Positions 13,947 to 34,024 of a stretch of DNA of 64,000 bases are shown here, in pieces. The translations under genes and the position numbers were made by a program. Numbering within the stretch: position 1 is the first letter of the stretch; each line of letters begins with the position of its first letter. This stretch comes from an uncultured virus (IMG/VR IMGVR_UViG_3300007770_000003) (taxonomy: Duplodnaviria > Heunggongvirae > Uroviricota > Caudoviricetes): the IMG/VR virus record IMGVR_UViG_3300007770_000003; one strand, written 5' to 3'. Below the pieces are notes generated by a model, which saw nothing but the letters and a program-made list of their open reading frames with translations, ran no database searches and was not told the DNA's origin.

Positions 13947-14993
13947 ATGTCCACCGCCCTTATCCACTGCCCCCTGCACTCTGGACAGCTCGGGCACTTC
14001 TACCAGGAGTGGAAAGACGGGACCTTGGTCCTCAACCCGGAGTTTCAGCGGTCCAACATGGTCTGGGATCAGATCCGCAAGTCTCGACTGATCGAGAGCG
14101 TGATCATCGGGTTCCCCGTCCCGCCTGTCTTCCTGACCGAGGCCGCAGACCACAAGCGAGAGGTCGTGGACGGGCTCCAGCGACTCACGGCGATCTTCGG
14201 GTTCATGGACGGGGACTTCGCCCTGAAGGGCATGGAGTGGCTGGAAAAGGCCGAGGGGATGAAGTTCGACGACCTCGGGGAGGGAGTCCGGACCAGGATC
14301 ACCCGCGGGTCGCTGGGCTTCTACACCCTCCCCGCCGACAACCCCAAGTGGAAGGGGAAGCTGAAGCACATCATGTTCAACCGCCTCAACGCCGGGGTCG
14401 CCGTCAACGGAATCGAGCGGATCATGGGCTCCCTCCCCGGGGAAGGGACCACCCTGGTCAACGCCACCGCTCAGGACTTCCTGGCCCTCTGGCCCAAGAA
14501 GCAGAAGGGGCTCGTCCGCCGGTCGAAGCACCTCCTCTACGGACTCTCCGGCCTCATCGCCGTCCAGGCGACCCTCGGGGCAGACTGCGTCAAGGTCGGG
14601 GCGATCGACTTCCGCCGGGGCGGACGGAACCCCTGGGAGACCCTGATGGCTCAGGCTCTCCAGGCTCTCAATCAAGCCTCCGCCCAGGACCGAGATGACC
14701 TTCAGGAGGCCGCCAAGGAAGCCCTCCTGACCACCGCCGCCGTCTTCGATCGCCCCTTCGTCACCTGGAGGGAAGACGGACGCTACAACTCCGGCGTGAA
14801 GGACGCCGCCATCGTCGTCCAGATGTGGGGCTTCGCTCGACCCTCCCAGAAGGATCAAGCCCACTGGATCGCCAACAAGGCCAAGGTGGAAGACGCCTGG
14901 AAGGAGCTGTGTCTCACCCAAAAGATCAACCATCAGGCGAACACCATGTTCGCCACCCTCAAGGCGTGGGGGGACACCCTCGACAAGATCTGA
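13947..14993 (+). CDS. DUF262 (ParB/Srx-fold, GmrS-like) domain protein
   Basis: PEFQRSNMVW, LIESVIIGFPVP, VVDGLQRL and FNRLN motifs; AGGAG RBS. Confidence 0.9.
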   Translation: MSTALIHCPLHSGQLGHFYQEWKDGTLVLNPEFQRSNMVWDQIRKSRLIESVIIGFPVPPVFLTEAADHKREVVDGLQRLTAIFGFMDGDFALKGMEWLEKAEGMKFDDLGEGVRTRITRGSLGFYTLPADNPKWKGKLKHIMFNRLNAGVAVNGIERIMGSLPGEGTTLVNATAQDFLALWPKKQKGLVRRSKHLLYGLSGLIAVQATLGADCVKVGAIDFRRGGRNPWETLMAQALQALNQASAQDRDDLQEAAKEALLTTAAVFDRPFVTWREDGRYNSGVKDAAIVVQMWGFARPSQKDQAHWIANKAKVEDAWKELCLTQKINHQANTMFATLKAWGDTLDKI

Positions 14994-15192
14994 AAACCTC
15001 CCGCGAGCGGTCCCGAGGCGACAAAACCCCAGGGGGCGCTCGCAGGCAGGGTAAACCTCCAGATTCCTTTGAGAATTGAGATCTTTGACAGCCCCGGAGG
15101 CGTCCACAACCTGTGGATAACCCTGTGCATAAGTAACCCGCTCGAAAACTACCCTCTCGATCCGCTATTTAAGCAGATCGAGAGAACCCAGG
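14994..15192 (+). promoter_or_regulatory. CRISPR leader 1
   Basis: Collinear homology with 33825-34024: GCGAGCGG..CAAAACCCC..CGCTCGC, TCCACAACCTGTGGATAACCCTGTGCATAA, CCGCTCGAAAAC and a terminal hairpin. Confidence 0.85.
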
Positions 15193-15465
15193 GTCTCAAT
15201 ACCTGCCGACCTCCTAGGAGGATGGCAAGACTCCCGGCCTGGGATCACCGAAGACGTGGTTAAGGAGGAGGTCTCAATACCTGCCGACCTCCTAGGAGGA
15301 TGGCAAGTGCTCGATGAGGTGGTGATCCCCGGGAATAGCACGATGGTCTCAATACCTGCCGACCTCCTAGGAGGATGGCAAGAGGTCCAAGCATCCCGGG
15401 ACTTCCCGCTCTTGACAGGCCGTCTCAATACCTGCCGACCTCCTAGGATGGGAAGGGAAGGCAAC
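15193..15465 (+). CRISPR. CRISPR array 1: three perfect 37-bp repeats plus one degenerate repeat, three spacers
   Basis: Repeat GTCTCAATACCTGCCGACCTCCTAGGAGGATGGCAAG at 15193, 15271 and 15346; degenerate copy at 15422. Spacers are 41, 38 and 39 bp. Confidence 0.97.
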
Positions 15466-15502
15466 GGAGATAGGGTCGATCGAGAGGCTATCTCCGTTGC
15501 CT
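15459..15502 (+). terminator. Hairpin at the trailer end of array 1
   Basis: AGGCAACGGAGATAG...CTATCTCCGTTGCCT is a 15-bp perfect inverted repeat. Confidence 0.55.
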
Positions 15503-15530
15503 GTTGACCTCTTCAGAGGATGGGAATAGC

Positions 15531-15557
15531 GGTAACTTTTTGAGGGCGGGGCGTATA
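15531..15557 (+). promoter_or_regulatory. Class I promoter-like motif
   Basis: GTAAC-N15-CGTATA upstream of rIIA. Confidence 0.7.
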
Positions 15558-15581
15558 GGGGGGGACACGAGGGCTGGCCCA

Positions 15582-17735
15582 TTGATTCCTGAGAACATTC
15601 GACGACACGCTGAAACCTCACCTCCCCTTCGCCGCGGGGCTTTCGGCATCTCTCGGGAGAACCTCGCCTATGTGGCGTCGCTCCTCCGCGACCTGTACTC
15701 GAACAAGGCTCGGGCCTTGCTGCGGGAGTACCACTCCAATGGAGCTGACGCTCATGTGGAGGCGGGTATTCCTGATCGTCCGGTCAAGGTCGTCCTCCCC
15801 ACGGAGATCTCCCCGATCATGGTGGTCCGGGATTGGGGTCCGGGGTTGTCTGAGGAGAACATGTACGCCGTGTTTTCTCAGTACGGGGCGAGCACGAAGC
15901 GAGAGACGAACGACCAGCACGGGATGATGGGCATCGGGAGCAAGGCGGCGTTCTCGCTGACAGACTCCTTCCAGGTCACTTCCTGGTTCAACGGGGTGAA
16001 GACCGTCTATATCGCCTACCTCGACGAGTCGGACATGGGGATGTTGGACAAAGTCCATGAGTCCCCCTGCGAGGATGAGACGGGTCTGGAGATCCGAGCG
16101 ACGGTCCCTCAGGAAGAGGTCCCGCACTTCCACCGAGAGGCTTGCTTCCTCTTCCGCTGGGTGAACCCCCAGCCGGAGATCAACATCGATCTCCCCGAGC
16201 CCGTGACGGGGCTCACCAGCGACCTGGGGGCGATCCTCCCTGAGGAGCCGGAGTGGCTCGCGGTGATGGGTGGTGTCCCCTATGTGATCGACCGAGAGCT
16301 ACTCGCTGGGATCGTGGGTCCCCGACTGGAGACCTCCATCCGAATGTCCTCGGGCGTGTTCATGTTCACCATCGGGGAGGTGGACATTGCCCCGAACCGG
16401 GAAGGGTTGAAGTTCACGAAGAAGACCCGGAAGCGGATCCGCCGGGCCGCCTGGGATACCCTCATGCACTTCGTGGGGGAGGCCAGGGAGATCGCCCTGG
16501 ACACCTCTCGATCTCCCTGGGAGCGGCGGCTGAACCTCCTCCAGTGGAAGTCACAAGCGGGGGCTCTCCCGTGGCCTGAGGAGGCTGACGGGCTGAATAG
16601 TCCTATCGTGAAGATGTTCACGGGTGAAGTCATCAACAACGACGGGGAGCCGGTCCTGACGGACGGGAAGGTCACCTACGACAAGCCCAGGACGTTCCAC
16701 CTCCGGAAGCTGCGGGGCGGGAGGTACCGCAACTCCATCACGCTGTCGGATGACTTCAACATCCGGATCGGGGAGCTAACTCGGATCATCATTCATGACA
16801 GCCTCAAGCCGGTATCTCGCTTCGTGGACACTGGCACCCCGGAGAGGGTCGTCATCGTCGCCAAGGGCTACTCTCTTCTGGACGTCCAGGCGGAGCTTCA
16901 GGAGCGTCTCCGCCTGAAGGGGTTGGAGGGCATCCCGATCCTTCGGACCTCGGAGATGAAGAGGATCCCCAAGACGCGGTCTGCCACCTCCCGGACCTTC
17001 AACCCGAAGCACAAGGCTCGCTGGTTCAAGCTCACCAGCACCCATGACCCGGGCCGGAGCCGATCTGCCAACTGGAGCATCGTCGAAGACCTGGACGATA
17101 TCGAGCCGGGGAGTATCGCGGTGGTCCTGAGCCACTTCTACCCCCGCGGCTTCGGGAGCAACTTCTACAGTATCATCCGAGCCATCAGGTCCATCGAGAT
17201 GGCGGCTGGTCGGTCGCCCACCCCTATCTACGGGATGAAGACGCTGGACCGGGATCCGGTGACGATTGAAATGGTCGTGGAGCAGTGTCAAGGGGTAGAC
17301 CTCCAGAAATGGATGACAGACTTTCTGGAGTCTGAAGCCCCTGACAACATCTCCGATCTGTGCCGAGCCCGGCGGGTGGGGGAACTCTTCCGGTGGCAGA
17401 GGAAGCATTTCCGGGCGGTCCGAGAGCTGTTCAAGGAGCATCCTGTCGGGCAGCGTCACACCATCGCCCGCTACTGTCGCCTCATCCTCGACGACTACGA
17501 CCTGTGGAAGGCTCTGCCCGCGGCAGAGAAGCAGCAGGTAAACAGGCTCGTGATGCTGTACCAACACACCAAGGAGGGTCGTAAGCTTGTTCGCAACTAC
17601 CCTCACCACGCCAAGCTCCGCAAGATTCTCATTCAGTACCCCCTCCTCGCCATCCGGAGTGACCTCAAGGTCATCGCTCAGAACCCGGAGCCCTGGATGG
17701 AGTACATCACCCTGATGGACAACAAGGATTCCTGA
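15582..17735 (+). CDS. rIIA: rIIA-like protein (GHKL/HATPase N-terminal domain)
   Basis: LYSN..LLREYHSNGADAH, DWGPGLS and YGASTKR..GMMGIGSKAAFS motifs; coupled to an rIIB-like gene. Start refined to TTG 15582, downstream of a promoter motif. Confidence 0.88.
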   Translation: MIPENIRRHAETSPPLRRGAFGISRENLAYVASLLRDLYSNKARALLREYHSNGADAHVEAGIPDRPVKVVLPTEISPIMVVRDWGPGLSEENMYAVFSQYGASTKRETNDQHGMMGIGSKAAFSLTDSFQVTSWFNGVKTVYIAYLDESDMGMLDKVHESPCEDETGLEIRATVPQEEVPHFHREACFLFRWVNPQPEINIDLPEPVTGLTSDLGAILPEEPEWLAVMGGVPYVIDRELLAGIVGPRLETSIRMSSGVFMFTIGEVDIAPNREGLKFTKKTRKRIRRAAWDTLMHFVGEAREIALDTSRSPWERRLNLLQWKSQAGALPWPEEADGLNSPIVKMFTGEVINNDGEPVLTDGKVTYDKPRTFHLRKLRGGRYRNSITLSDDFNIRIGELTRIIIHDSLKPVSRFVDTGTPERVVIVAKGYSLLDVQAELQERLRLKGLEGIPILRTSEMKRIPKTRSATSRTFNPKHKARWFKLTSTHDPGRSRSANWSIVEDLDDIEPGSIAVVLSHFYPRGFGSNFYSIIRAIRSIEMAAGRSPTPIYGMKTLDRDPVTIEMVVEQCQGVDLQKWMTDFLESEAPDNISDLCRARRVGELFRWQRKHFRAVRELFKEHPVGQRHTIARYCRLILDDYDLWKALPAAEKQQVNRLVMLYQHTKEGRKLVRNYPHHAKLRKILIQYPLLAIRSDLKVIAQNPEPWMEYITLMDNKDS

Positions 17736-19432: not shown

Positions 19433-21060
19433 TAGGCGTCCCTGTGAACGCCTACAGCCCTCCCTGACGGGTCCGCGGCCTCCCGGAAGGACTTATCCCA
19501 GGCGAGTGCTGTCGGCGTGCTACAGGCAACGCTGGGGCCTCCAGGGACCGTCTTCGCGGCGTCCTCCGAGGGAAACTCCTTCTGAAAGATGGAGCGGTAG
19601 AAGTATGCCTCCTTGGTCGCAGGAGTGTTGACCGGCCAGCGGCTCGCCGCCTGCTGGAAGTCCTCGTCAGACACCTGCTGGTCCGCGACCTCCTTCAAGC
19701 TGTCGATCCAGCTATAGCCGACCCCGTCGCTAAACTGCTCCTTCTGACGCCAGAGCACTTCATCAGGGATCAACCCTTGCCCCTCAAAAGCAGATCTGAG
19801 GAGGTGTTTCTCCATGCGAGCCCCGTGGGGGCTCGTACTCGACATTTTGTAGGCCGGGTCCAACCCCATCGCCAGATCGAGAAACGCCCGGTCCAGGAAG
19901 GGCACCCGGGCTTCCACCCCCCACGCCATCATGCTCTTGTTGGCTCGGAGACAATCATACAGGTGAAGCGTCTGAAGCTTCCTGACCGTCTCGCAGTGAA
20001 ACTCCTCCCGACTCGGGGCCTTGTGGAAGTACAGGTAGCCTCCGAAGATCTCATCAGCCCCCTCACCGCTCAGGACCATCTTGACCCCGAGCTTCCGAAT
20101 CTCCCTCGCCATCAAGAACATTGGAGTCGAAGCCCGGATCGTCGTGACGTCGTAAGTCTCGATGCTTCGGATCACGGCTTCCAGGGCTGCGATCCCCTCT
20201 TCCACCGTGTACGTGAAGGCATGGTGGTCTGACCCCAGGTGCTTCGCTACTACGGCCGCCGCCGCGAGGTCCGGAGACCCCTCAAGGCCAATGGAGAAGG
20301 ATTTCATCCCGGGTCGGTTTGCCAAAGCCGCCACCAGTGAAGAGTCCAAACCACCAGAGAGAAGGACTCCCCAGGGAACGTCCGCCATGAGCCGCTTCCC
20401 GACAGAGGCCCTCAACTTAACCGCAAGGTGTTCCAGCACCATTCGGCTAGGGCCCTGACCCGTATACCCCGGCATCTGAGTAAACCAGGAGGGCTCCCAC
20501 CAACGGGATATCTGGCTCTGACAATAGTAATGTCCGGGAGGAAACACCTGGATGGAGCCTGAAGGGAGGGCTTTCATCTCCGAGCTGAACCACACGCCGT
20601 CAGCCGTCTGACTCCAGTACAACGGGACGATCCCCATATGGTCCCTGGCTGCGAACACCGACCCATCTCGCCCATCGTAGAGGACGAAGGCGAATTGCCC
20701 GTCCAGGTGCTTCACGCAGTCCTCCCCGTAGCGGAGGTATAGGGGAAGAATCACCTCGCAATCTGAGCACGTCTGGAAGTCGTAATCCTGAGCGAGCCGT
20801 GTCCGGTAAACATCGTGGTTATAGATCTCACCGTTGGCGATCAACACCAGCTTGCCGTCAGGGCTCACCAGAGGTTGAGCCCCGCTCGTGGGATCAACAA
20901 TCGCCAGCCTCGTATGCCCTAGAACCGCCCCAGGAGCCTCCCAGGTCCCCGTGAAGTCCGGCCCCCGATGTTGGAGTCGCCCGAGACGCCGATGTAGCTC
21001 AGAAGCTCTCTCAGCCTGTTGAGAAGGATCAAAACCTGTGACCGATAGGATGCCGCACAT
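19429..21060 (-). CDS. asnB: Asparagine synthetase B (glutamine-hydrolysing)
   Basis: MCGI N-terminus, HRGPD, NGEIYNH, LLSGGLDSS, SGEGADEIFGGYLYFHKAP and WRQKEQFSDGVG; full length, 543 aa. Confidence 0.97.
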   Translation of the reverse strand: MCGILSVTGFDPSQQAERASELHRRLGRLQHRGPDFTGTWEAPGAVLGHTRLAIVDPTSGAQPLVSPDGKLVLIANGEIYNHDVYRTRLAQDYDFQTCSDCEVILPLYLRYGEDCVKHLDGQFAFVLYDGRDGSVFAARDHMGIVPLYWSQTADGVWFSSEMKALPSGSIQVFPPGHYYCQSQISRWWEPSWFTQMPGYTGQGPSRMVLEHLAVKLRASVGKRLMADVPWGVLLSGGLDSSLVAALANRPGMKSFSIGLEGSPDLAAAAVVAKHLGSDHHAFTYTVEEGIAALEAVIRSIETYDVTTIRASTPMFLMAREIRKLGVKMVLSGEGADEIFGGYLYFHKAPSREEFHCETVRKLQTLHLYDCLRANKSMMAWGVEARVPFLDRAFLDLAMGLDPAYKMSSTSPHGARMEKHLLRSAFEGQGLIPDEVLWRQKEQFSDGVGYSWIDSLKEVADQQVSDEDFQQAASRWPVNTPATKEAYFYRSIFQKEFPSEDAAKTVPGGPSVACSTPTALAWDKSFREAADPSGRAVGVHRDAY

Positions 21061-21137
21061 GATTCCCTCTACCCGGATTCAAGACGTAAACCAGGAGCTA
21101 TAGGGCGAGTATCCGAGAGAGTCGCGTAAGGTCGGGT

Positions 21138-21632
21138 ATGCCAACCGAGATTGAACGCCGCTTCCTCATCGAGGAGCCCTTCGCCCAGCCCCGAGTCCCT
21201 GGGGTCTCCATCAAGCAGGGCTACCTGTCCCTCGACCCAAGGAGAACCGTCCGCGTTCGGGTCACCCACTACGGCGGAGTGGACGCCGTGGGCACCCTCA
21301 CGATCAAGGGGAAGAAGACAGGAGCCGCCGCTCCTGAATTCGAGTACGAGATCCCCAGGGCGGACGCAGAAGATCTGCTGAAGCTACGAATCTCCAAGCT
21401 GATCGAGAAGACCCGATACAAGATGCGATTCGGGGATCACGATTTCGACGTGGACTTCTTCCATGGAGAACACCAGGGGCTCGTCATCGCGGAAGTTGAA
21501 CTGGACTCCGAAGATGAGGAAGTCTCCGTCCCCGAGTGGTTCGGCAAGGAGATCACTGACGACCCCGCCTACTCCAACGCCCAACTCTCTCGGCACCTAA
21601 TGAGACCCGGAGCAGGGAAAATCTCTCTATAA
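21138..21632 (+). CDS. CYTH domain (triphosphate tunnel) protein
   Basis: EIERRFL, QGYL, VRVR, LTIKG, EFEYEI, IEKTRY, AEVEL and YSN motifs. Confidence 0.92.
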   Translation: MPTEIERRFLIEEPFAQPRVPGVSIKQGYLSLDPRRTVRVRVTHYGGVDAVGTLTIKGKKTGAAAPEFEYEIPRADAEDLLKLRISKLIEKTRYKMRFGDHDFDVDFFHGEHQGLVIAEVELDSEDEEVSVPEWFGKEITDDPAYSNAQLSRHLMRPGAGKISL

Positions 21633-21635
21633 GAG

Positions 21636-21662
21636 GGTAACTTTTCTGAGGGTACTCGTATA
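21636..21662 (+). promoter_or_regulatory. Class I promoter-like motif
   Basis: GTAAC-N15-CGTATA upstream of the operon containing the mini-array. Confidence 0.75.
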
Positions 21663-21684
21663 CCTCTACAACAGGAGGTACAGC

Positions 21685-21786
21685 ATGTCGGCCCAGAATC
21701 GTATCAACGCGACGCTCGCGGAGACCGACCCGAACCTCTACATCGAGAACAACAACTCCTGGTCCTTCGGGATCTGGTACAAGTGA
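21685..21786 (+). CDS. Small protein, 33 aa (MSAQNRINATLAETDPNLYIENNNSWSFGIWYK)
   Basis: Below the track cutoff. AGGAGG RBS directly after a promoter motif; stop overlaps the next GTG. Confidence 0.6.
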   Translation: MSAQNRINATLAETDPNLYIENNNSWSFGIWYK

Positions 21787-22142
21787 GGGCTACGATGGAC
21801 CGTCAGGAATTCAACCGAGCTTTCCGCACCGCCAGGATCACCCTAGCGGTCTTCACCTCCGGGATGGACGGCAAAGGTCGCTACGCCCACATCTCCGGAC
21901 AGGAGCGGGCGAACGCGGAAGATCGGTGGATTCGGATGACCAACACGGACCACCCCGACCGGCCCGCCTACCTCGCCCTGGCTCTCCGCCAGAACGGCGA
22001 GCGAAAGAGCCTCGCCGCTTCCGCGGTCTTCGACACCGTGAAGTGTCGGGGCAAGCTGAAGGGCTGGTATCGCGATCTGGCGACGAAGAACCTCACCCGC
22101 CGAGGTCGGCTCACCCCGACCAGGGGGTGTCTGCTGCCCTGA
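21783..22142 (+). CDS. Hypothetical basic protein
   Basis: 119-aa ORF coupled to the upstream small ORF. Confidence 0.55.
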   Translation: MRATMDRQEFNRAFRTARITLAVFTSGMDGKGRYAHISGQERANAEDRWIRMTNTDHPDRPAYLALALRQNGERKSLAASAVFDTVKCRGKLKGWYRDLATKNLTRRGRLTPTRGCLLP

Positions 22143-22219
22143 GAAGACAACGAGAGGATGGCAAGAGCCAATCGGCCACGCGACCCAAATCAATACCTGC
22201 TTACCCTTGAGGATGACCC
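22129..22219 (+). CRISPR. Degenerate mini-array: repeat / ~21-nt spacer / repeat
   Basis: GAGGATGGCAAG (22154-22165) equals the 3' end of the array 1 repeat. TCAATACCTGCTTACCCTTGAGGATG (22190-22215) closely matches the array 2 repeat. Confidence 0.75.
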
Positions 22220-22420
22220 ATGAAGTACACGGAAGAGGAGCTGGACGCTGCCTGGGTAGCCGACCAGCTCGCGGACGCGAGACACGCAGAGCGTCAAGCC
22301 GCAGAAGGCCCCTTCTTCCCTGAGCGAGGGATCACCCGCGAGAGCCTGTTGGCCTACGCGGCTTACTGCCGAGCCCTCGCAGAGAACCCCAGGGAGACCC
22401 GAGAGGCTGCTCTCCGATAG
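22220..22420 (+). CDS. Small hypothetical protein
   Basis: 66 aa; its GAGG RBS lies inside the second mini-array repeat. Confidence 0.6.
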   Translation: MKYTEEELDAAWVADQLADARHAERQAAEGPFFPERGITRESLLAYAAYCRALAENPRETREAALR

Positions 22421-22457
22421 GGCCTCTATAGCGACACTCCGGTAGGAGACCGTCACT

Positions 22458-23786
22458 ATGCCCTTGACGACCGCTCGCCCTACCCGAATCGCAGCTCGGT
22501 GGCTCCAAGCGATCACGACCCCGCTCCCGGTTTCTTTCGAGACCACGGAGCGGGGTTTGATGACTCTGGCTGAGTTCATCAAGCATCGGAACCCCCAGGG
22601 CAAATTCCACGACGAGGACTCCTACGACTGGACCACGGAGTCCATGAACCGGAAGCTGATCCCGATCCGAGAGGACAAGGGCTTCCTCATCTCCAAGCCG
22701 CTCGGTAAGACCGGCTATCTCATCCACCAGGATGGTCGGCTGGTCGCCTTCATCCACCAGGGGACGATGTACTTCGGGGCTGGAGCCCCCATCCGAGATA
22801 TCCCCACCTCCTATTACGACTACCACACCCGCGATTTCGTCGATCTGGGGGTCCAACGGAAGAAGAGGGTGAAGTACATCGACGAACACGTCGATCTGGT
22901 CTACCAGATCGCTGCCAGCAACTACAGCGAGTATCCCGTTATCGTCCAGAGATTCCGAGTCAAAGGGGAGCCTTACGTGCTCCGGGCTCAGGCTGAGCCG
23001 GTGCCGGACAAGGGAATCAACCTGGGGCTGTTCAACGAAGCCGGTGAGAAGGTAGCCAGTGCTGAGAATGAATGGGGAGCTACCCTCCTCGTCGTCGCCC
23101 GGGAATACCGAGGGAAGGGGCTCGGTAAGATCATCGGGAAGGCTTGGTACCACTTCAACCCGAGTTTCCCCTCTGGCGGGTTCTCAGCGGCGGGGCAAGA
23201 CAACGCCGTCCGTTTATGGGCGGATCGAGTTCGCGAGTTTCTCTCCCGTGGCTGGTACTCCGAGCTGGTGAGATCGGGTCAGTTGACCCCAGCCCGAGTC
23301 AAGGAGATCCTCGCTGACCTCCCTGGAAAGAAGCGGAGACAGACGGAGGCCCCCCAGGGCGAGAAGAAGCAAGTCCTGTTCATGATTGACGACCCCACCT
23401 TTGTCATCTACGACCAGCGTTTCCTGTCCGAGCCTGATGAGAAGTACATCTATGCCTACGGCTTCTTCCGCGACGCCCCCGGCATCGGGGAATTTCTCTA
23501 CACGATCGACTACGACCGGACCTTTGATCGAGTAGCCCACGTCGTCGCCTTCCAGATGGCTCGGGACAACGGACTCGACCTCTACGTCGGAGAAGGCTAC
23601 GGCGACATGCTGGAGATGGACAAGGTCCCCGAAATCGAAGTGGAGGGCGACTACGCCCGCCTCACCCAGGACATGCTCCCCCTCGATCCACTAGGACGCC
23701 GGGAGAAGCTCCTCCGCAAGCGGGTTGACCCCTACGAGGAGAAGTACACCCGGCTACTTGAAATGGCTGAGGCCAAGTGGCGTTAA
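22458..23786 (+). CDS. Hypothetical protein with central GNAT-like acetyl-CoA-binding motif
   Basis: LLVVAREYRGKGLGKII followed by SGGFSAAG; N-terminal RIAARWLQA; preceded by TAG-N6-TATAG. Confidence 0.65.
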   Translation: MPLTTARPTRIAARWLQAITTPLPVSFETTERGLMTLAEFIKHRNPQGKFHDEDSYDWTTESMNRKLIPIREDKGFLISKPLGKTGYLIHQDGRLVAFIHQGTMYFGAGAPIRDIPTSYYDYHTRDFVDLGVQRKKRVKYIDEHVDLVYQIAASNYSEYPVIVQRFRVKGEPYVLRAQAEPVPDKGINLGLFNEAGEKVASAENEWGATLLVVAREYRGKGLGKIIGKAWYHFNPSFPSGGFSAAGQDNAVRLWADRVREFLSRGWYSELVRSGQLTPARVKEILADLPGKKRRQTEAPQGEKKQVLFMIDDPTFVIYDQRFLSEPDEKYIYAYGFFRDAPGIGEFLYTIDYDRTFDRVAHVVAFQMARDNGLDLYVGEGYGDMLEMDKVPEIEVEGDYARLTQDMLPLDPLGRREKLLRKRVDPYEEKYTRLLEMAEAKWR

Positions 23787-24535
23787 TAGTAAGTGTCGAA
23801 GCTCCGATCCCAAGGGAGCATGGTCTGATGAAGCCTCACGGGGTACTCCAGCTCCACCCGGACCAGGAATCGACCGCCCTGTGAGGTCACCTCGGTTGCC
23901 CGAATCTCAGGATCCCCGAGCACGAGAGCGACCCGCACCTCAGTGACGACCATCTGCTCCTCCCACTCCTCCGCGTCGTCATCCCAATGCTGCTCCTCCG
24001 TGTCTACGTCTACGAAGTCGTAGGCAGCATCCTGAGCCTTGTCAGCAGGATCCCGAAGACGCATGGTAAGAGCATCCTCCACCACGGATCCCCACTTCTG
24101 AGCCAGGAAGCTCTGCACTTCACGGCGATCGAAGGCATCCCCGAGGCTCGCCCGGGTATCCCAAGACTCCCGAGAGAACTGGCTGAGAAACTCCTTCTTC
24201 AGCTTCTTCACCTGAACGAAGAACGCCTTCTGCCCCGAGACCGAAGAGGGATACTCCACCTCCCAGGAGATCGTCCGGCTCCCATCAGAGGCTTCCCAGG
24301 AATTCGCCCGGTGGTTCATCCGGCCGGGCTTCCACTTAGAAACCCCCAACACCGCTTTCTCCACGAGACGCCGGGCGGTCTCCTCCATCAGGTCATGGAG
24401 TACCTCCACGATCTGCTCCGCTCCATCTTCCGGCTCATCAGCATCCAGAAGCGCACCCACATCGGTCAGAGACCGAAGCAACCCCCGCCCAGATGCCTGG
24501 AGCCACTTGTCTGCGACCTTCGCTGCCTGAGCCAT
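23783..24535 (-). CDS. Hypothetical protein with N-terminal KVADKWLQA peptide
   Basis: 250 aa; AGGAGG RBS; TAG-N6-TATAG upstream. Confidence 0.65.
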   Translation of the reverse strand: MAQAAKVADKWLQASGRGLLRSLTDVGALLDADEPEDGAEQIVEVLHDLMEETARRLVEKAVLGVSKWKPGRMNHRANSWEASDGSRTISWEVEYPSSVSGQKAFFVQVKKLKKEFLSQFSRESWDTRASLGDAFDRREVQSFLAQKWGSVVEDALTMRLRDPADKAQDAAYDFVDVDTEEQHWDDDAEEWEEQMVVTEVRVALVLGDPEIRATEVTSQGGRFLVRVELEYPVRLHQTMLPWDRSFDTYY

Positions 24536-24632
24536 CCTCAGCCTCCTAACCGCCCCTCGCTATAGTCGTCCTACCGAGCGCAGCGTCGGTAGCCCCAGCT
24601 CAGCCAGGGACTCACATCCCACAAAGGAACGT

Positions 24633-24866
24633 CTACTTGGCGGACACCGTCCGCTGGACCTTCCAGCGAGTGTTGCCCAGCCGACGCCAGTGAATCACGC
24701 CTTCCTCTCCCGAAGGGACACCGAAGTTCGCCACCATCGCCGGGTGACGGCTCATGTGCTCAACATGGTCCGCCGCCAGAGCGGCAGAGTCCCCGTCAAA
24801 CTCAAACCGCTCCAGCAACTCGCCGTCGCTGCTCCGGTAGATCTGGGCTTCATACTTGCGAGACAT
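24633..24866 (-). CDS. Small hypothetical protein
   Basis: AGGAGG RBS and a TCGTATA promoter motif upstream. Confidence 0.7.
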   Translation of the reverse strand: MSRKYEAQIYRSSDGELLERFEFDGDSAALAADHVEHMSRHPAMVANFGVPSGEEGVIHWRRLGNTRWKVQRTVSAK

Positions 24867-24888
24867 GTAGAACCTCCTGATGGAATTC

Positions 24889-24942
24889 TATACGACCCGC
24901 CCAGGAAAAGTAGCCCGGAAATTTCCCCTGCTCGCTCGTATG
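24889..24942. promoter_or_regulatory. Back-to-back pair of class I motifs
   Basis: GCTAC-N15-CGTATA on minus and GGAAA-N15-CGTATG on plus, between divergent genes. Confidence 0.7.
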
Positions 24943-24958
24943 CAACAACAGGAGACCA

Positions 24959-25705
24959 ATGGACCCCAGAATCGCCGCGTACCGAGAACGCCTTCAGAAC
25001 TATTACCAGATCTGGGTGGCCTGGATGCTCTCAGGGGACCGGGAGCACCTCTACTCTCTGAACGAGATGGAGATCCGCAGCCCCAGGTTCGATCCCCTGG
25101 TCCTCCCTCCAGTGGTCTGGATCTACCGGCCTCCTGACCAGGAGAGCGACGACTACAAAGCTTATGACTTCCTCTACCGCCGTCCGGTGACCGTTGGGAA
25201 CCACAAGTTTCACCGGTCAGGGCGGAACACGGTCAACCGGTCAACCCGACACGGGCGGATCAACTGGCACGCCACCGCGAAAGCCATCAGAGCAGCTCAA
25301 CGACTCCACAGCATCCGACAGAAGGTGTTCAGCAACGCTGTCCGAGAGGTGCAGGTCGAGATAGGGATCTGGGCACTCGCCCAGATCCCAGGGTGGGAAT
25401 TCAACGAGGACGGGGCCTTCAAGATCATCTGGTTTGAGGGCGACTACCTGATCTATTTCGAGTCGCTGGGAGGCGTGGGAGCCCACACCCCTGCTACCTC
25501 CACTCAACCTGACGCCTACGTCATCATGCGAGTCATGAGACAAACCGGCGGGGAAGACTACCTGACCCGGCGGCGGCTCGCTCAAGAACAGCTCGCCGTC
25601 ACCGCACCCGACCGGCTCAAGACCCTACTGAAGGAAATCCTCCGACTGCGGAATCGTCGAGCCCAGGCAATCGTAGACAAAGTCACCAGCACTCCGGCAT
25701 CCTAA
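24959..25705 (+). CDS. Hypothetical protein
   Basis: 248 aa; AGGAG RBS; promoter motif upstream. Confidence 0.7.
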   Translation: MDPRIAAYRERLQNYYQIWVAWMLSGDREHLYSLNEMEIRSPRFDPLVLPPVVWIYRPPDQESDDYKAYDFLYRRPVTVGNHKFHRSGRNTVNRSTRHGRINWHATAKAIRAAQRLHSIRQKVFSNAVREVQVEIGIWALAQIPGWEFNEDGAFKIIWFEGDYLIYFESLGGVGAHTPATSTQPDAYVIMRVMRQTGGEDYLTRRRLAQEQLAVTAPDRLKTLLKEILRLRNRRAQAIVDKVTSTPAS

Positions 25706-25712
25706 AAAGCAA

Positions 25713-25739
25713 GGTAACTTTTTGGGGGATGGTCGTATA
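25713..25739 (+). promoter_or_regulatory. Class I promoter-like motif
   Basis: GTAAC-N15-CGTATA. Confidence 0.75.
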
Positions 25740-25760
25740 GTCTCCTAACTGGAGGATCTG

Positions 25761-26276
25761 ATGGGTCGGCGGAAAAGTTCAACAGCTCTCCGTGTCTTTG
25801 ACACGGGAGTCCTGCACACCTCCCACGTCGGGGATCACCGAGTGGTGGTCGCGGATCCCGACCCGGCGATCTCCATGATCGCTTTTGGAGACGAGGGCCG
25901 CCTCTGGTCCGTCGAGGTCCAGGTCGCACGGCACACCCTCGGTCCCCGCAGGGGGTCTCCGATCTACGACCCCAGCGTCTTGCTCATCCGGGTCCGCAAC
26001 ACCAAGGGGACTTTCCCCCTGGAGGAGTTGAAGCGGGTGATCCCGTTCGACGACGACAACACCACGTTTGCGAGCGGGTACAACCACCTCCACGACTCCG
26101 ACGCGATCCGGATCCGCCTCTCCTGGCAGGGCGTTCGGCACTTCCTCTGGAATCTCGGGAAGACCCTGAAGGAGGCTACCGTCCGCGTGGGCAGGGGCGA
26201 GATCTTCGTGGAAGACGGGAAGTGGATCGACGACATGAGCCAGGAGTTGTCCGCCCTCCCCGCCACCCGATTCTGA
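25761..26276 (+). CDS. Hypothetical protein
   Basis: 171 aa; GGAGG RBS; promoter motif upstream. Confidence 0.7.
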   Translation: MGRRKSSTALRVFDTGVLHTSHVGDHRVVVADPDPAISMIAFGDEGRLWSVEVQVARHTLGPRRGSPIYDPSVLLIRVRNTKGTFPLEELKRVIPFDDDNTTFASGYNHLHDSDAIRIRLSWQGVRHFLWNLGKTLKEATVRVGRGEIFVEDGKWIDDMSQELSALPATRF

Positions 26277-27233: not shown

Positions 27234-27551
27234 ATGAAGCGATTCCCGATCACCGTCACCGTCGATCCCACCCGCCCCAGCGTGGTGCTCTTTACGACCC
27301 CCGAGAGTGAGGGGGAGATGGGTATCGGGGCCGCCGCGACGGAAGAGCAATACGACCACATCACGGACGAGCTGGCGAGCAAGCTCCACGAGGATTGGGA
27401 TCTGGGGCGGCACGGAGATGAGATCGTCATCTCCTTTCCCAACGGGGAAACTCAGACTCGCACGCTGGGCGAGGTCTTTGATGACTCCTGGGTGGATGAC
27501 TTCTACGCCCGTCAGGAGCAGAGCCCCGAAGAGTTTTTCGAGGCGTGCTGA
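27234..27551 (+). CDS. Small acidic protein overlapping the cas3 start
   Basis: 105 aa; GGAGG RBS; promoter motif upstream; 7-nt overlap with cas3. Confidence 0.7.
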   Translation: MKRFPITVTVDPTRPSVVLFTTPESEGEMGIGAAATEEQYDHITDELASKLHEDWDLGRHGDEIVISFPNGETQTRTLGEVFDDSWVDDFYARQEQSPEEFFEAC

Positions 27552-29953
27552 GTCCTGTCGAAGACTATCTGAGTCGGCGTCCACTCCTCGCCAAGTGGCG
27601 ACGAGAACGAGAGGACTTCAGCCCCGGACGGGGGTTCAACTTCGTTTGGCACTACAAGGAAGTCCTGTGGGCCCTCGGAGTGCTGTTCACCGAGCCCTAT
27701 TGGGCTGAGAGGGAGTATCCCTCCCTCGCCCATGCTGTCCACGCCAGGATGGAGTTGCCGTGCTCCTTCCGAGACTTCAAAGCGTGGACGCTCCTCTCCC
27801 TGCTCGGTCACGACTTCGGGAAGGCAGGGGGAGAGTTTCAAGAGATGCTGGTCGGGCTGGAGCTGGCCTACAAGAGCTTCAGGGGCCCTGAGGGCGGGTT
27901 CAAGCTTCCAGAAGAGGAGCGGCGGTACCTCCGCCTGAAAAGACGGATGAGCGGCTACAGGAAGCACGTACAGGCATACCGGCACGAGCTACTGTCCGCC
28001 CTCATGATGAATCAAGAGCCCCTCCGGTCCTGGGTGGTTCAAATCGCGGGTGGAGAGCAAGGCTTCGCCTACGCCCTGGCCGGGGCGTTCGGGCATCACC
28101 TCAAGTGCCACCGGCCGATCAGCACCCAAGAGATCCTGGCCCGCGGGAGATACAAGACGCTCCCGGTCTACCAGGACAAGCTCGCCCGTGACATGAACAC
28201 GGTCCTCCGCAGCTTGCCTGAAGGATTCCGAGACCTCGCGGTGCCGGCCTTCCCCGATCTCCCACACCTGCCGGGCGGGAACCATTTCACGACCCCCAGG
28301 CGACTGGAGCAGGGGCTCCAGTCGATATCAGTAAACGACCTCTTCTATCGGATCGAGGATGACCCGATCTCCGGGGCGATCAAGTGGCTGACGATCCTGG
28401 CGGATACCCTGGGATCAATCCACGCCTCCGGGGATGATCGGTCCTATCGGAAAACGAAAGACGCCATCCTGAGCGTCATTCGCGAGACCTGGGCCACGCG
28501 AGAAGTGGACTTCGGAGCCATCCTCCGACAGAGGCTAGGCCCAGAGGGGAGCCTGACCCCCACTCAGAAAAACTGTCTCCGACCAGGGAGAGACCTCTTC
28601 CTCCCCTGGGCGACAGGGGTCGGGAAGACCCTGGGGGCTCTGCAATGGGGCTCGGGTCACCCGAAAAACCCCATGATCTTCTGCACCCCCACGATGGATA
28701 TCGGAACCCACCACTTCCTCGACTACGCCCGAAAAGGGATGGACACCCTACGGCACTCCCGAGCAGGGGAGGTGCTGCTCAAATACACCCCCACCCCTGA
28801 AGACAACTCCCAAGAAGAAGCGGACGCCAGGAGGGAAGCTCGGGACACCCTCCACCGAATTCGACAGGGATCACGAGACCTCACCTTCGCCACCATCGAT
28901 CAGGTGCTCGGGCTCATCGCCTTCCGACGCTCCGCGATTGCCTACCTCCCCTGGATCTTGAAGAGCCAGATCGTCTTCGATGAAGTGGAGAACTATGACC
29001 CCGTCACCCGGGCATGGCTGATTCGATTTCTCAACTGGTTCCCCCAGAACCGCAAGGCGTTTCTCTCAGCCACCTTCCCCGAATACCTGCTCGACCGACT
29101 CCGGCCCACCCTGCGAGCCCCCACCATCATGGGATCATCTACGAACCCTGACCGGGCCTCCAACAAACCGCGATACCGAATCCACATCCTCAAAGGTCCG
29201 AAAGAGGCCTTCCAGCAATTCCACGCCGGGACCCTCTGGTTCACCAACACCGTCGCCCGCTGCCAGCAGGTCGGGATCACGGCACCCGACGCCCTCGTCT
29301 ACCACAGCCGCTTCCGAGACCGGGATCGCAGAGGGATCAGCGATAGGATCAAACAGGATCTCCTCAACAAAAGACGGGTCACGACGACCCAGGTTGCCGA
29401 GGTAGCTCGGGATATATCAGCTCTCTCCTTGCTTTCTGAGATTTCCACACCCAGCTCCATGACGCAGAGGCTCGGTCGTTCTAATCGGCACGACTTCACG
29501 GGACCCGTGGACGTCTTTTTCTACATGCCCCAGGCAGACAACGGGCTCCCCTACGTCGCTCACGACGACTGGCTCCCCACATTCAACCTCTGGAGAGGCT
29601 GGATAGGACAATTCGACGGGCTCGCTGTCTCCCAAGACGAACTCAACGAAGCACTGCTGGATTTCTACAGAGATCCAAGGAACTTCCCACGTCAGCGCGA
29701 CGCATTTTCCAGTCTCCTGGTGACCTCAAATCGACGGATCCGAGACGCCGACTACACCACCCGAGTCCTGCTCCCGGAAGACGCCCAGAAGCTACCGGAT
29801 CACGAGGAAACCAAACACCTCACCATCCCCATTCTGCTCCGACCAGACCAGAAGACCTACCTGGAAACCCTCGGCCGGACGCACAGAAAAATTCTGGTCG
29901 TCGATTCCTCTATTGGAACCTACGATATCAGGCTTGGTTTTCTACCTTCCTGA
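27545..29953 (+). CDS. cas3: Cas3 HD nuclease-helicase
   Basis: HD domain: GHDFGK..FQ, RHE, GHH, LADTLGS. SF2 motifs: ATGVGKT, FDEVE, SAT, FTNTV, YHSRF, QRLGRSNR. Confidence 0.92.
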   Translation: MLSPVEDYLSRRPLLAKWRREREDFSPGRGFNFVWHYKEVLWALGVLFTEPYWAEREYPSLAHAVHARMELPCSFRDFKAWTLLSLLGHDFGKAGGEFQEMLVGLELAYKSFRGPEGGFKLPEEERRYLRLKRRMSGYRKHVQAYRHELLSALMMNQEPLRSWVVQIAGGEQGFAYALAGAFGHHLKCHRPISTQEILARGRYKTLPVYQDKLARDMNTVLRSLPEGFRDLAVPAFPDLPHLPGGNHFTTPRRLEQGLQSISVNDLFYRIEDDPISGAIKWLTILADTLGSIHASGDDRSYRKTKDAILSVIRETWATREVDFGAILRQRLGPEGSLTPTQKNCLRPGRDLFLPWATGVGKTLGALQWGSGHPKNPMIFCTPTMDIGTHHFLDYARKGMDTLRHSRAGEVLLKYTPTPEDNSQEEADARREARDTLHRIRQGSRDLTFATIDQVLGLIAFRRSAIAYLPWILKSQIVFDEVENYDPVTRAWLIRFLNWFPQNRKAFLSATFPEYLLDRLRPTLRAPTIMGSSTNPDRASNKPRYRIHILKGPKEAFQQFHAGTLWFTNTVARCQQVGITAPDALVYHSRFRDRDRRGISDRIKQDLLNKRRVTTTQVAEVARDISALSLLSEISTPSSMTQRLGRSNRHDFTGPVDVFFYMPQADNGLPYVAHDDWLPTFNLWRGWIGQFDGLAVSQDELNEALLDFYRDPRNFPRQRDAFSSLLVTSNRRIRDADYTTRVLLPEDAQKLPDHEETKHLTIPILLRPDQKTYLETLGRTHRKILVVDSSIGTYDIRLGFLPS

Positions 29954-30029
29954 AAAAGTTTCCCTACGAGGCTACCCATAAAACAGAAATTACGGTATCA
30001 ACAGGGGCACCCAGAGAGGACACCTCTTG

Positions 30030-31712: not shown

Positions 31713-31745
31713 CAACCAACCAGCAACCAACCAGCAACCAACCAG
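31713..31745. repeat. Tandem repeat (CAACCAACCAG)x3
   Basis: Three exact 11-bp units fill most of the cas8-cas7 gap. Confidence 0.95.
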
Positions 31746-31753
31746 AGACCACA

Positions 31754-33824: not shown

Positions 33825-34024
33825 CCCACCCCAAGCGAGCGGACCAGAGACGGCAAAACCCCCAGGCCCGCTCGCGTGAACCTGAAGACCCCGAAAATCT
33901 TCAGAAACCCCGTTCATTGAAAGCCCCAGAGTCTTCCACAACCTGTGGATAACCCTGTGCATAATCGAACCGCTCGAAAACCACTCTCTCGATCCGCTAT
34001 TTAAGCGGATCGAGAGAGGAAAGG
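33825..34024 (+). promoter_or_regulatory. CRISPR leader 2
   Basis: Homologous to leader 1; lies between cas6 and the first repeat. Confidence 0.85.

Follow-up and report, generated by a model that had tools for sequence, protein, structure and literature searches.

Regulatory CRISPR-like RNAs tune or guard cas genes in cells and hijack host Cas proteins in small phages and plasmids, and CRISPR-associated transposons carry short delocalized guides. In two-repeat creA genes, the first repeat conserves the handle and the second conserves the 3'-handle part (PMC8501985). Viral crRNA-like RNAs of type I-F carry guides of 17-21 nt, compared with 23-27 nt for the host RNAs and a canonical 32 nt, and assemble with fewer Cas7-type subunits (bioRxiv 10.1101/2024.10.29.618823). 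Type I-B mini-arrays with truncated spacers have been described in Clostridium phage (PMC10120712). Spacers of huge phages match host transcription and translation genes, and repression without cleavage has been proposed for them (PMC7162821). CRISPR-associated transposons insert beside tRNA genes via atypical homing guides (PMC11656645).

The locus described here lies in a 64,000-nt stretch of DNA from an uncultured virus (IMG/VR record IMGVR_UViG_3300007770_000003), referred to as the window. Its gene content is phage-like, and the genome is about 0.5 Mb (~540 kb) by CheckV and of marine origin, with a GC content of 61% and strong Shine-Dalgarno (SD) sites. The phage also carries tRNAs of its own, two of which are amber suppressors. 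At 22129-22219 on the + strand, a mini-array consisting of a first repeat derivative (psiR1), a 21-nt spacer-like guide (psiS) and a second repeat derivative (psiR2) is found inside an operon of small genes. The features considered are listed below; the starts of the inner cas genes are estimated from the onset of domain matches.

15082-15191, + strand: leader of CRISPR array 1
15193-15458, + strand: CRISPR array 1, four repeats of 37 nt, the last degenerate, with spacers of 41, 38 and 39 nt
21636-21662, + strand: promoter-like motif GGTAACTTTTCTGAGGGTACTCGTATA, located 23 nt ahead of the operon's first ORF
21685-21786, + strand: small ORF of 33 codons (about 101 in a near-identical contig)
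21795-22142, + strand: 115-codon ORF without a recognised family; psiR1 begins with its last 14 nt
22129-22165, + strand: psiR1, repeat-like only in its last 12 nt (22154-22165), sequence GAGGATGGCAAG
22166-22186, + strand: psiS, the 21-nt spacer-like guide AGCCAATCGGCCACGCGACCC
22187-22219, + strand: psiR2, a derivative of the 5' part of the repeat, retaining TCAATACCTGC.TACC and GAGGATG
22220-22420, + strand: 66-codon ORF of no known family, with its ATG at 22220
22458-23786, + strand: ORF of a 442-aa protein, phrog_29287, a widespread family of unknown function
27545-33824, + strand: type I-B interference module, from domain and family searches
27545-29953, + strand: cas3, Cas3b match
30027-31712, + strand: cas8-like ORF, without a family match
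about 31720-32647, + strand: cas7, Cas7b match
32644-33237, + strand: cas5, Cas5b match
about 33240-33824, + strand: cas6, Cmx6 type
33914-34024, + strand: leader of CRISPR array 2
34025-34434, + strand: CRISPR array 2, six repeats of 36-37 nt, the last degenerate, with spacers of 37-41 nt

Genes for a cognate Cas6, Cas7, Cas5 and Cas3 lie 5-11 kb downstream of the mini-array in the same genome. The start of cas3 lies 5.3 kb downstream of it, in agreement with the 5 kb given in an earlier note on this DNA. The adaptation genes cas1, cas2 and cas4 were not found in the window. Canonical spacers of the two arrays revealed no self-targets, and two of them had no protospacer in IMG/VR, so that no PAM could be derived. 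Nothing among GenBank phages matched 20000-26000 or either array. Two further repeat-like sequences were seen, a scrap within a PARP-like ORF (35490-35508, E=0.007) and a very degenerate fifth repeat beyond array 1.

The earlier note had described a 37-nt first unit that keeps the TGCC/GGCA stem and, unchanged, the 12 nt that end the array-1 repeat, a spacer of about 21 nt, and a second unit close to the array-2 repeat. The 12-mer GAGGATGGCAAG at 22154-22165 is indeed the exact 3' terminus of the array-1 repeat, and psiR1 contains both TGCC (22134-22137) and GGCA (22160-22163), but the resemblance of its 5'-most 24 nt to the repeat is at chance level; this part is the 3' end of the 115-codon ORF plus 11 nt. 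Exact copies of the 12-mer occur four times in the window, in three array-1 repeats and in psiR1. When up to one mismatch was allowed, 5 matches were obtained compared with 0.51 expected, and none of 100 shuffles reached 5. Taken alone, psiR1 matched a profile of nine repeats with E=6.4. The guide was found to be exactly 21 nt, compared with the 37-41 nt of spacers in arrays 1 and 2. The second unit bore out its description: its identity to the array-2 repeat is 26/36, and an nhmmer search of the window matched 22190-22215 to positions 4-31 of the model (E=7.1e-4). In psiR2, TCAATACCTGC is exact and the unit's own handle is degenerate. The mini-array has the same orientation as both arrays and the surrounding operon ORFs. 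A profile match as weak as that of psiR1, on the same strand and within 60 nt upstream of psiR2, is expected about 0.003 times by chance (6.4 x 60/128000). Judged from its sequence, the mini-array is derived from a CRISPR repeat, and a chance match is excluded. A regular CRISPR array is excluded as well, as the mini-array has no leader, no near-identical repeats and no uniform spacers of canonical length. No copy of the leader common to arrays 1 and 2 (110-130 nt) was found near it, which upholds its earlier description as leaderless. By analogy with type I-B systems, 22158-22165 is the presumed 8-nt 5' handle ATGGCAAG, and Cas6 cleavage is predicted between 22157 and 22158 in psiR1; the corresponding site in psiR2 is predicted between 22212 and 22213.

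The operon provides the setting for any expression of this element. The claim that a class I promoter lies upstream stood in part: the motif at 21636-21662 is recurrent, its class having five copies in the window, five in contig G513 and four in contig G516, both of the same lineage, with none in shuffles, but its role as a promoter is presumptive. No sigma-70-type site was found in 20900-24000. Neither the 115-codon nor the 66-codon ORF had a match in Pfam, NCBIfam, PADLOC or PHROG, and the nearest non-identical homologues of the 442-aa protein are at most 50% identical. The SD sequence of the 66-codon ORF, GAGG at 22209-22212, falls within psiR2, just as the earlier note had placed it.

Relatives offered little variation for comparison. 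A near-identical contig in IMG/VR is 99.97% identical to the window. It carries 204 extra in-frame nt at 21690-21698 of the small ORF at the start of the operon, and the short and long forms of this ORF are both present in two sequencing runs. Searches with two flanking proteins returned only this contig and one weak 30-residue match, and no relatives between 50% amino-acid and 99.9% nucleotide identity were found. Four sequencing runs showed 0 differences in 21135-23388, and the population is nearly clonal, with only 3 SNPs in 8 kb.

Conservation of the two repeat derivatives is lopsided. At the handle end of psiR1, 12/12 nt are kept, and the constrained 5' block is gone except for CCTG. In psiR2, all 5'-block positions constrained in the lineage are retained (T4-C14, A17-C19), and three positions of its unused handle, each retained in 23-24 of 24 lineage units, are gone. 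The degeneration is therefore divergent, with the 5' handle best preserved in psiR1 and the 3'-handle part in psiR2. If psiR1 had diverged like psiR2, its 12 unchanged positions would have a probability of P=0.02. It is important to note that GAGGATG also serves the following ORF as SD sequence, and translation could account for its retention.

The favoured explanation, in which confidence is evenly balanced, is that the mini-array is a crRNA-like regulatory unit of the CreA/CreR or viral crlRNA kind, supplying a non-cleaving guide to the phage's own type I-B Cascade. Transcription within the operon would proceed from the promoter-like motif at 21636. The RNA would be trimmed to the 8-nt 5' handle AUGGCAAG, the 21-nt guide and a 3' handle derived from psiR2, either by Cas6 at one or both repeats or, at the 5' end, by another nuclease. 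The product would be taken up by a Cascade that is shorter, by about three Cas7 subunits, than the one assembled on a 37-41-nt spacer. This complex would bind matching DNA, forming an R-loop too short to license Cas3, and would block transcription without cutting. The ~200 kb of lineage DNA covered would not include the target, which would belong to the remainder of the ~0.5-Mb genome, to the host or to a rival element. Cas6 cleavage at psiR2 would fall between the SD sequence and the AUG of the 66-codon ORF, and guide production and expression of this ORF would then be mutually exclusive for each transcript.

The same remains could instead be an inert relic, a possible but on the whole unlikely reading. 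Here an old ectopic repeat-spacer-repeat, or a fragment relocated when arrays recombined, would have lost most of psiR1 and about 17 nt of spacer through deletions, and would persist only because the 66-codon ORF now takes its ribosome-binding site from it. The reduction of psiR1 to a 12-nt stub, the deletions in the psiR2 hairpin and the absence of a stable fold are consistent with this, as is the existence of the other repeat-like scraps (35490-35508 and the fifth repeat after array 1). The trailer ends of arrays decay, the SD overlap accounts for the retention of GAGGATG, and no target for the guide was found in the window, the lineage contigs or IMG/VR. However, random decay would not spare exactly the parts of a mature crRNA, namely the complete handle block and the psiR2 5' block, and the P value given above argues against it. 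Array decay also degrades repeats and does not by itself halve spacers, and short spacers beside selectively kept repeat positions are what a second contig displays.

This contig, G513 (GC 60.6%), shares with the window an identical array-2 repeat, a homologous leader and the promoter-motif class. It belongs to the same phage lineage and may or may not be part of one genome with the window. Its array, which was missed by the earlier note, comprises 26 units; 17/25 spacers are 30 nt or shorter, 8/25 measure 19-22 nt, and periods of 58 nt recur, matching the period of the mini-array. Among 24 degenerate units, TACCTGC and ACC are kept in 22-24, compared with 10-13 for the first three nucleotides (chi-square p=4e-21). 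A stem of at least 3 bp ending exactly at the predicted Cas6 site is retained in 21/30 units, compared with 0-6 for five of six shifted anchors, and the stem sequences vary among units (CCTC/GAGG, CCCT/AGGG, CCCC/GGGG). With short spacers in the majority and repeat positions selectively conserved, short-guide units look maintained in this phage lineage, and the conservation pattern suggests that the G513 array may be functional. Solitary repeats inside transcription units, between tRNA genes, were also observed in a lineage contig. The G513 short spacers had no target in the phage DNA covered, the longest exact matches being 11-14 nt, and one spacer match with a 17-nt core reached only 20/37 overall. 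None was found in four Bacteroidota genomes either (best E=0.2). A tRNA-like character of these spacers was rejected, as 1/21 passes a crude test with a 2% background rate. The single repeat-like match in a 4-kb viral contig turned out to be fortuitous and lies within coding sequence.

Folding of the mini-array bears on how its RNA could be processed. In the case of psiR1, the predicted fold (-6.4 kcal/mol, z=-0.46) has no stem adjoining the cut site. In the case of psiR2, the fold is -0.6 kcal/mol (z=+0.9), compared with -9.6 to -12.7 for canonical repeats, and the stem adjoining the predicted cut site is down to about 2 bp. The closest lineage unit matches psiR2 at 28/37 positions, with 3 nt of the hairpin deleted in psiR2, and for the 116-nt region as a whole the predicted fold does not surpass those of shuffled sequences (z=+1.27).

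These values weigh on a further alternative, a Cas6-dependent mRNA switch, which must be considered doubtful. In such a switch psiR2 would work alone. Cas6 would bind or cut between GAGG and the AUG and, at high levels of phage Cas6, uncouple the 66-codon ORF from its ribosome-binding site, possibly together with the 442-codon ORF that follows. The position of the predicted cut between SD and start codon agrees with this, psiR2 retains every constrained 5'-block position, and the solitary lineage repeats between tRNA genes fit RNA-processing signals. Nevertheless, this leaves unexplained why the handle block 24 nt upstream is perfectly preserved, and so short a stem beside the cut site makes cleavage doubtful. 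The switch and the guide reading are compatible rather than exclusive. Together, the damaged psiR2 hairpin and the absence of the conserved 5' block from psiR1 speak against a simple decoy and against a Cas6 switch that works cleanly, two of the roles that the earlier note had offered beside repression. The remainder of that interpretation held: this is a repeat-derived, leaderless short-guide unit with CreA-type decay, located in a small-gene operon of a phage with Cas6 and a type I-B Cascade.

The target of the guide was sought in the DNA available. In the window the best match was 15/21, and the best strict seed covered 9 positions, which 46/100 shuffled guides reached or beat; this agrees with the earlier finding of no convincing target there. 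With up to 3 mismatches, no target was found in the near-identical contig, the element itself excepted, or in four other lineage contigs. The lineage DNA covered amounts to ~200 kb, compared with a genome of roughly 540 kb. A search of the 21-mer with every sixth position free had been proposed earlier and yielded no target; with positions 6, 12 and 18 free, IMG/VR returned only the mini-array itself. Complementarity of the creA type between the guide and a cas or toxin promoter (PAM-proximal 9-15 nt) did not rise above chance in the window and four contigs.

One similarity, which the earlier note had also missed, was found outside phage DNA. In antisense orientation, 20/21 nt of the guide match positions -1 to +20 of Bacteroidota-type tRNA-Cys(GCA) genes, with the sole mismatch at guide position 6, and the similarity ends exactly at both guide borders. 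Because the search pattern permitted differences at positions 6, 12 and 18 only, where the mismatch falls carries no independent weight. The guide matched at least 120 metagenome loci. The matches listed represent 55 unrelated families, the tRNA being one of them, and at least 8 non-tRNA families match equally well at 20/21. Since so many unrelated sequences match as well, the tRNA-Cys(GCA) 5' end is only a lead as the possible target. One 20/21 family is a GC-rich gene whose flank reads as the N-terminus of adenylosuccinate synthetase. The GC content of the tRNA-Cys loci is 34-52%, compared with 61% for the phage. As tRNAs are stable, silencing a tRNA gene during infection would have no obvious pay-off. 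A tRNA-type match was present in 3/401 Bacteroidota genomes. With up to 2 mismatches, 18/101 Planctomycetota genomes matched, similar to a control with the reversed pattern, and none of the six Planctomycetota loci examined was a tRNA. Ten additional genomes of other phyla gave no convincing guide match. A tRNA gene or remnant on the minus strand at the site itself was rejected, as neither ARAGORN nor the Rfam tRNA model detected one and the similarity is confined to the 21 nt.

In the most far-reaching reading, the ~0.5-Mb marine phage might run half-length guides between degenerate repeats, in this unit and in the 26-unit array, as a programmable silencing toolkit on its own type I-B Cascade. 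At a host tRNA-Cys gene, the present unit would hold Cascade over the first 20 bp, helping a phage with tRNAs of its own to take over translation in the host. This extended proposal is a long shot.

A role against the host's defences was also weighed and seems improbable. The RNA would act as an anti-CRISPR against a related type I-B system of the host, either as a Racr-like decoy for Cas6 or Cascade subunits, or as a Cracr-like guide turning host Cascade on a host cas or toxin promoter. The mini-array is phage-encoded, its short guide matches the published viral class, and the degeneracy of its repeats would keep it from recombining with the arrays. However, the phage has a complete effector of its own with matching repeats and would not need a host partner, the hairpin that a Cas6 decoy requires is weak, and no acr-like neighbour was recognised among the window ORFs. 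No host with the repeat family was found either, in one scan of genomes for the repeat core whose short 15-mer pattern gave at least 120 single chance matches and was uninformative. A search for Cas3 look-alikes led to mixed phyla.

Under the favoured explanation, a non-cleaving guide for the phage's own Cascade, the closest described systems are CreA and CreR (PMC8501985; 10.1101/2023.03.10.532045). As in these RNAs, two highly degenerate repeats flank a spacer-like guide without a leader, the first repeat holds an 8-nt 5' handle and the second a part of the 3' handle, the unit lies outside an array near type I-B cas genes, and Cascade presumably binds without cleavage. Unlike the cell-encoded CreA/CreR, the unit described here is phage-borne and placed 5 kb from the cas operon in an unrelated small-gene operon. 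Its guide is 21 nt, its first repeat only 12 nt, and its processing is predicted; neither a promoter nor a toxin gene complementary to the guide was found in the window or in four lineage contigs.

Racr RNAs (PMC10651486) are likewise viral, repeat-derived and located outside an array, but they are solitary, guide-free repeats that keep the Cas-binding structure, whereas two partial repeats, a guide and a weak hairpin are found here. The homing guides of CRISPR-associated transposons resemble this guide in having atypical repeats and lying apart from the array, and would share the aim at a tRNA gene if the tRNA lead is right. In contrast to those homing guides, as far as they are described, the guide here matches the 5' end of the tRNA gene and not its downstream flank. 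A transposon homing guide was rejected, as no Tn7-like transposase was present among the 71 window ORFs scanned and Cas3 is present.

The viral Cracr and phage mini-arrays share with this unit a phage-borne location, degenerate repeats, a guide below canonical length and, as the lineage array demonstrates, the capacity to be stacked. Like Cracr, the unit is virus-encoded with a guide shorter than canonical (21 compared with 37-41 nt). However, the published Cracr hijack host Cas proteins and copy the seed of host CreA/CreR, whereas this phage owns Cas6, Cascade and Cas3, and the published stacked arrays have 2-3 spacers, compared with 26 units in the lineage contig. The effector-only loci of huge phages (PMC7162821) are also of type I, without cas1, cas2 and cas4 and with compact arrays. 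The passages considered describe regular arrays and make no mention of dispersed units that combine degenerate repeats with guides of half length.

A huge phage with a complete effector of its own thus displays the CreA/Cracr anatomy, as one unit dispersed in an operon and an array of 26 units on a lineage contig. If the guides are inert, the locus would offer a clean example of the origin and decay of such units. If they are active, the phage Cascade would be mainly a multiplexed repressor rather than a nuclease. This would extend the idea of CRISPR repression by huge phages and supply natural rules for short-guide silencing with type I-B systems.

The mini-array at 22129-22219 (+) consists of two repeat-like units, psiR1 and psiR2, on either side of a spacer-like guide, psiS. 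The element and the two arrays of the window are laid out as follows.

22129-22165, + strand: psiR1, sequence GTCTGCTGCCCTGAGAAGACAACGAGAGGATGGCAAG
22166-22186, + strand: psiS, the 21-nt spacer, sequence AGCCAATCGGCCACGCGACCC
22187-22219, + strand: psiR2, sequence AAATCAATACCTGCTTACCCTTGAGGATGACCC, with an ATG directly 3'
15193-15458, + strand: array 1, four 37-nt repeats GTCTCAATACCTGCCGACCTCCTAGGAGGATGGCAAG, the last one degenerate
34025-34434, + strand: array 2, six repeats GTCTCAATACCTGCCTACCCCTAGAGGGATGGCAAC, the last one degenerate

The last 12 nt of psiR1 reproduce the end of the array-1 repeat exactly, and in the window exact copies of this 12-mer are confined to array 1 and the element. 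With up to one mismatch, it has 5 matches in the window against 0.51 expected, a number reached by 0/100 shuffles. An nhmmer-type profile of nine repeats located psiR2 in the window at 22190-22215 (E=7.1e-4) and gave E=6.4 for psiR1 alone. By arithmetic, the 60 nt upstream of psiR2 should hold about 0.003 matches as weak as psiR1 in the matching strand and order, and the co-occurrence is therefore considered real. These sequence comparisons identify the element as a true mini-array derived from the repeats, its guide half the usual length, in agreement with the two-unit element described in the earlier note. The description of the first repeat as a 37-nt unit holds for the exact last 12 nt but was overstated, since the first 24 nt resemble a repeat only at chance level; they are mostly the 3' end of a 115-codon ORF (21795-22142).

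The window has a phage-like gene content. Most ORFs match no family; among those assigned to one are DNA polymerase A, a primase-type zinc finger, a sigma-70 factor, three DNA methylases and a cell-wall amidase. A 49-kb IMG/VR contig with 99.97% identity to the window has a CheckV completeness of 9%, so the full genome would be about 0.5 Mb. The cas set comprises cas3 (27545-29953), a cas8-sized ORF, cas7, cas5 and a Cmx6-type cas6, typed I-B by the best models; no cas1, cas2 or cas4 was seen in the window. The array-1 and array-2 leaders share 87% identity over 130 nt. An anti-CRISPR decoy or a hijacker of a host system is a quite improbable reading of the element.

The element is part of a + strand operon that runs from a promoter-like motif (21636-21662) through a small ORF, the 115-codon ORF, the element and a 66-codon ORF to a 442-codon ORF. 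The motif, of which the window has five copies and shuffled sequence none, agrees with the promoter proposed upstream of the operon, and the ribosome binding site of the 66-codon ORF was correctly placed in the second repeat, as its SD, GAGG (22209-22212), falls within psiR2. The operon's small proteins had no family match. The 27-nt motif (GGTAAC-TTTYY...YCGTATA) occurs in the window at 15531, 21636, 25713, 27188 and 34467 (+) and at 24889 and 27160 (-), recurs ahead of operons, among them the cas operon and the gene that follows array 2, and is present in two lineage contigs, G513 and G516. The sigma factor encoded by the phage (40422-41264) may recognise it. Short direct repeats flank a 204-nt in-frame insertion/deletion polymorphism at 21690-21698, within the small ORF that opens the operon; both forms were seen in two sequencing runs.

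The crRNA 5' handle of type I-B systems is usually 8 nt. This length, also given in PMC8501985, was assumed in modelling the mature RNA. By this analysis, the RNA would consist of ATGGCAAG from psiR1, the 21-nt guide and approximately the first 26 nt of psiR2. The parts of the element that are retained are exactly the parts of this predicted RNA. In psiR1, 12/12 nt are kept around the handle and nothing else, while psiR2 keeps TCAATACCTGC.TACC and its own handle, needed by no downstream guide, reads ATGACCCA. If the 12-nt block had diverged like psiR2 (26/36 identity), it would be intact with P=0.02. According to PMC8501985, "divergent degeneration" is typical of two-repeat creA genes, which the element resembles in carrying the handle in the first repeat and the 5' part in the second.

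The guide of 21 nt, compared to 37-41 nt for the spacers of the window arrays, confirms the short spacer of the earlier note. According to 10.1101/2024.10.29.618823, type I-F guides measure 17-21 nt in viral crRNA-like RNAs, 23-27 in host regulatory RNAs and 32 in canonical spacers, and complexes of the viral RNAs contain fewer backbone subunits. Clostridium phage I-B mini-arrays likewise have guides shorter than the host's (PMC10120712). We consider there to be an even chance that the element is a crRNA-like, non-cleaving Cascade guide of the CreA/CreR or viral crlRNA (crRNA-like RNA) kind, acting with the phage's own type I-B effector.

Several observations count against a guide. psiR1 has neither the 5' block nor a stem at the cut site; if Cas6 needs either, the 5' end of the RNA would have to be made another way. 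psiR2 is closest among lineage units to GTATCAATACCTGCTTACCTCTTCGGAGGATGGCAAC (28/37), relative to which three nucleotides of the CCTC-TTCG-GAGG hairpin are absent. Its fold is -0.6 kcal/mol (z=+0.9) versus -9.6 to -12.7 in canonical repeats, and the whole element region folds no better than shuffles. An inert relic, which such losses would fit and the intact handle block would not, is possible but doubtful. Relatives are either 99.9% identical or at most 50% at the protein level, and four sequencing runs showed no differences in the element but only three SNPs in 8 kb. The GAGGATG in psiR2 may be retained for translation of the 66-codon ORF. A Cas6 switch on this ORF is improbable beside the weak psiR2 fold; a cut at the predicted 22212|22213 would part the SD from the AUG, and for this reason a switch and a guide may coexist.

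In IMG/VR the repeat core turned up in six stretches, two in the near-identical contig and three in G513, G514 and G516; the sixth, in an unrelated phage, was rejected as a chance match within coding sequence. G514 is identical to part of G513 (70.7 kb), and G516 (84 kb) has 99.9% identity to G513 across 35 kb. No genes common to G513 and the window were found at the DNA level. The G513 repeat is identical to that of array 2, its leader is 74-77% identical to the window leaders, and G513 has 5 copies of the promoter-motif class and a GC of 60.6%. Its replication genes (DnaB, ligase, thymidine kinase and dCTP deaminase) complement the window's set, and among 15 ORFs scanned ahead of its array none matched a Cas family. 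Because of repeat, leader, motif, GC, Cas-free flank and complementary replication genes, we infer that G513 and the window are parts of one genome or of two closely related ones.

L268:380-2000, - strand (lineage contig stretch equal to G513 reverse-complement 34922-36572; also in L275): array of 26 units

The array opens with two canonical repeats, and the other 24 are degenerate. Spacers are 30 nt or shorter in 17/25 cases and 19-22 nt in 8/25, and 58-nt periods recur, the same period as in the window element. Related short-spacer pairs are present, e.g. CCACCAGAGGACGCTGTTGTT and ACTCCAGGGGACGCTGTCGTC. The degenerate units retain TACCTGC and ACC in 22-24/24 and the first three nucleotides in 10-13/24, an unevenness with a chi-square p of 4e-21. 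In the GGAxGGxAA block, G, G, A, G, G, A and A are retained in 21-24/24, counts that best-match placement biases upward. Stems of at least 3 bp and of varied sequence end exactly at the predicted Cas6 site in 21/30 units (window's included); anchors shifted by -4, -3, -2, +2 and +3 gave 0-6 units and +4 gave 24, so the control was not clean. Such uneven conservation is as predicted by selection on processing and loading signals, unlike uniform decay. psiR2 retains every 5'-block position constrained among these units.

Solitary CRISPR repeats were also observed within a cluster of nine tRNA genes at L274 ~15530-15690 and 12570-12750 (-), corresponding to G513 reverse-complement 55037-55298 and 57976-58143. 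One is ordered tRNA-Leu(UAG), 27 nt, repeat, 19 nt, tRNA-Ser(UGA); the second lies 28 nt past tRNA-Leu(GAG) and has a duplication of its last 15 nt. Cas6 and RNase P could release a putative handle plus about 19 nt that ends at a tRNA 5' end.

In the window, a GmrSD-N-domain protein (13947-14993, +) and a 743-aa protein (15504-17735, +) whose N-terminus is weakly GHKL-ATPase-like lie on either side of array 1; both could be defence or anti-defence genes. Beyond the degenerate fourth repeat of array 1, 15459-15528 (+) holds a 36-nt "spacer" in the form of an almost perfect hairpin, GCAACGGAGATAG...CTATCTCCGTTGC, and then a fifth, very degenerate repeat; the motif at 15531 comes next. At 35485-35521 (+), 1 kb past array 2, repeat-like GTGCGATACCTGCCGACCTCTTCGCCTGAGGGCAAG (nhmmer E=0.007 for 35490-35508) sits in a 552-codon PARP/ADP-ribosyltransferase-domain ORF; chance similarity, a relic or a Cas6 site in the corresponding mRNA could each account for it. 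A tandem pair of tRNA genes with CUA anticodons (58032-58186, -; amber suppressors, labelled "Pyl" by ARAGORN), with a CGTATA-type motif ahead, suggests that some of the phage genes are translated with TAG as an amino-acid codon.

The earlier view that psiS has no convincing target in the window stands, as nothing rose above chance; none was found in four further lineage contigs or in IMG/VR. The window arrays had no match among GenBank phages, and two canonical spacers had no protospacer in IMG/VR from which to derive a PAM. A CCW PAM is known for a type I-B system, that of C. difficile. When guide positions 6, 12 and 18 were left unconstrained, a metagenome scan gave at least 120 loci, and 43/120 among the matches listed were tRNA-Cys(GCA) genes (ARAGORN). 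The guide reverse complement GGGTCGCGTGGCCGATTGGCT matches GGGTCGCGTGGCCGAGTGGCT, tRNA-Cys position -1 to +20, with a single difference at guide position 6, and the similarity is bounded precisely by the two ends of the guide, with CCT on the PAM side. The same tRNA was present in 3/401 Bacteroidota genomes sampled. No tRNA gene is present at the element itself in the window.

Although striking, the match to the tRNA-Cys(GCA) 5' end is treated as a lead only, because the 120 listed loci span 55 unrelated families of which tRNA is one, and at least eight others equal 20/21 (one a GC-rich gene whose flank reads as the N-terminus of adenylosuccinate synthetase). In addition, the search pattern allowed mismatches only at positions 6, 12 or 18, GC is 34-52% at the tRNA loci versus 61% in the phage, which also has strong SD sites, and silencing a stable-RNA gene brings no clear benefit to infection. 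From the tRNA-gene share of genomes, the chance that one of 55 random families is tRNA is estimated at 0.05-0.1, or lower if the exact register, noticed post hoc, is counted.

The anatomy of such mini-arrays is already published. The element differs from the published examples in belonging to a huge phage that owns the effector, in its dispersal into an operon and in its 26-unit sister array.
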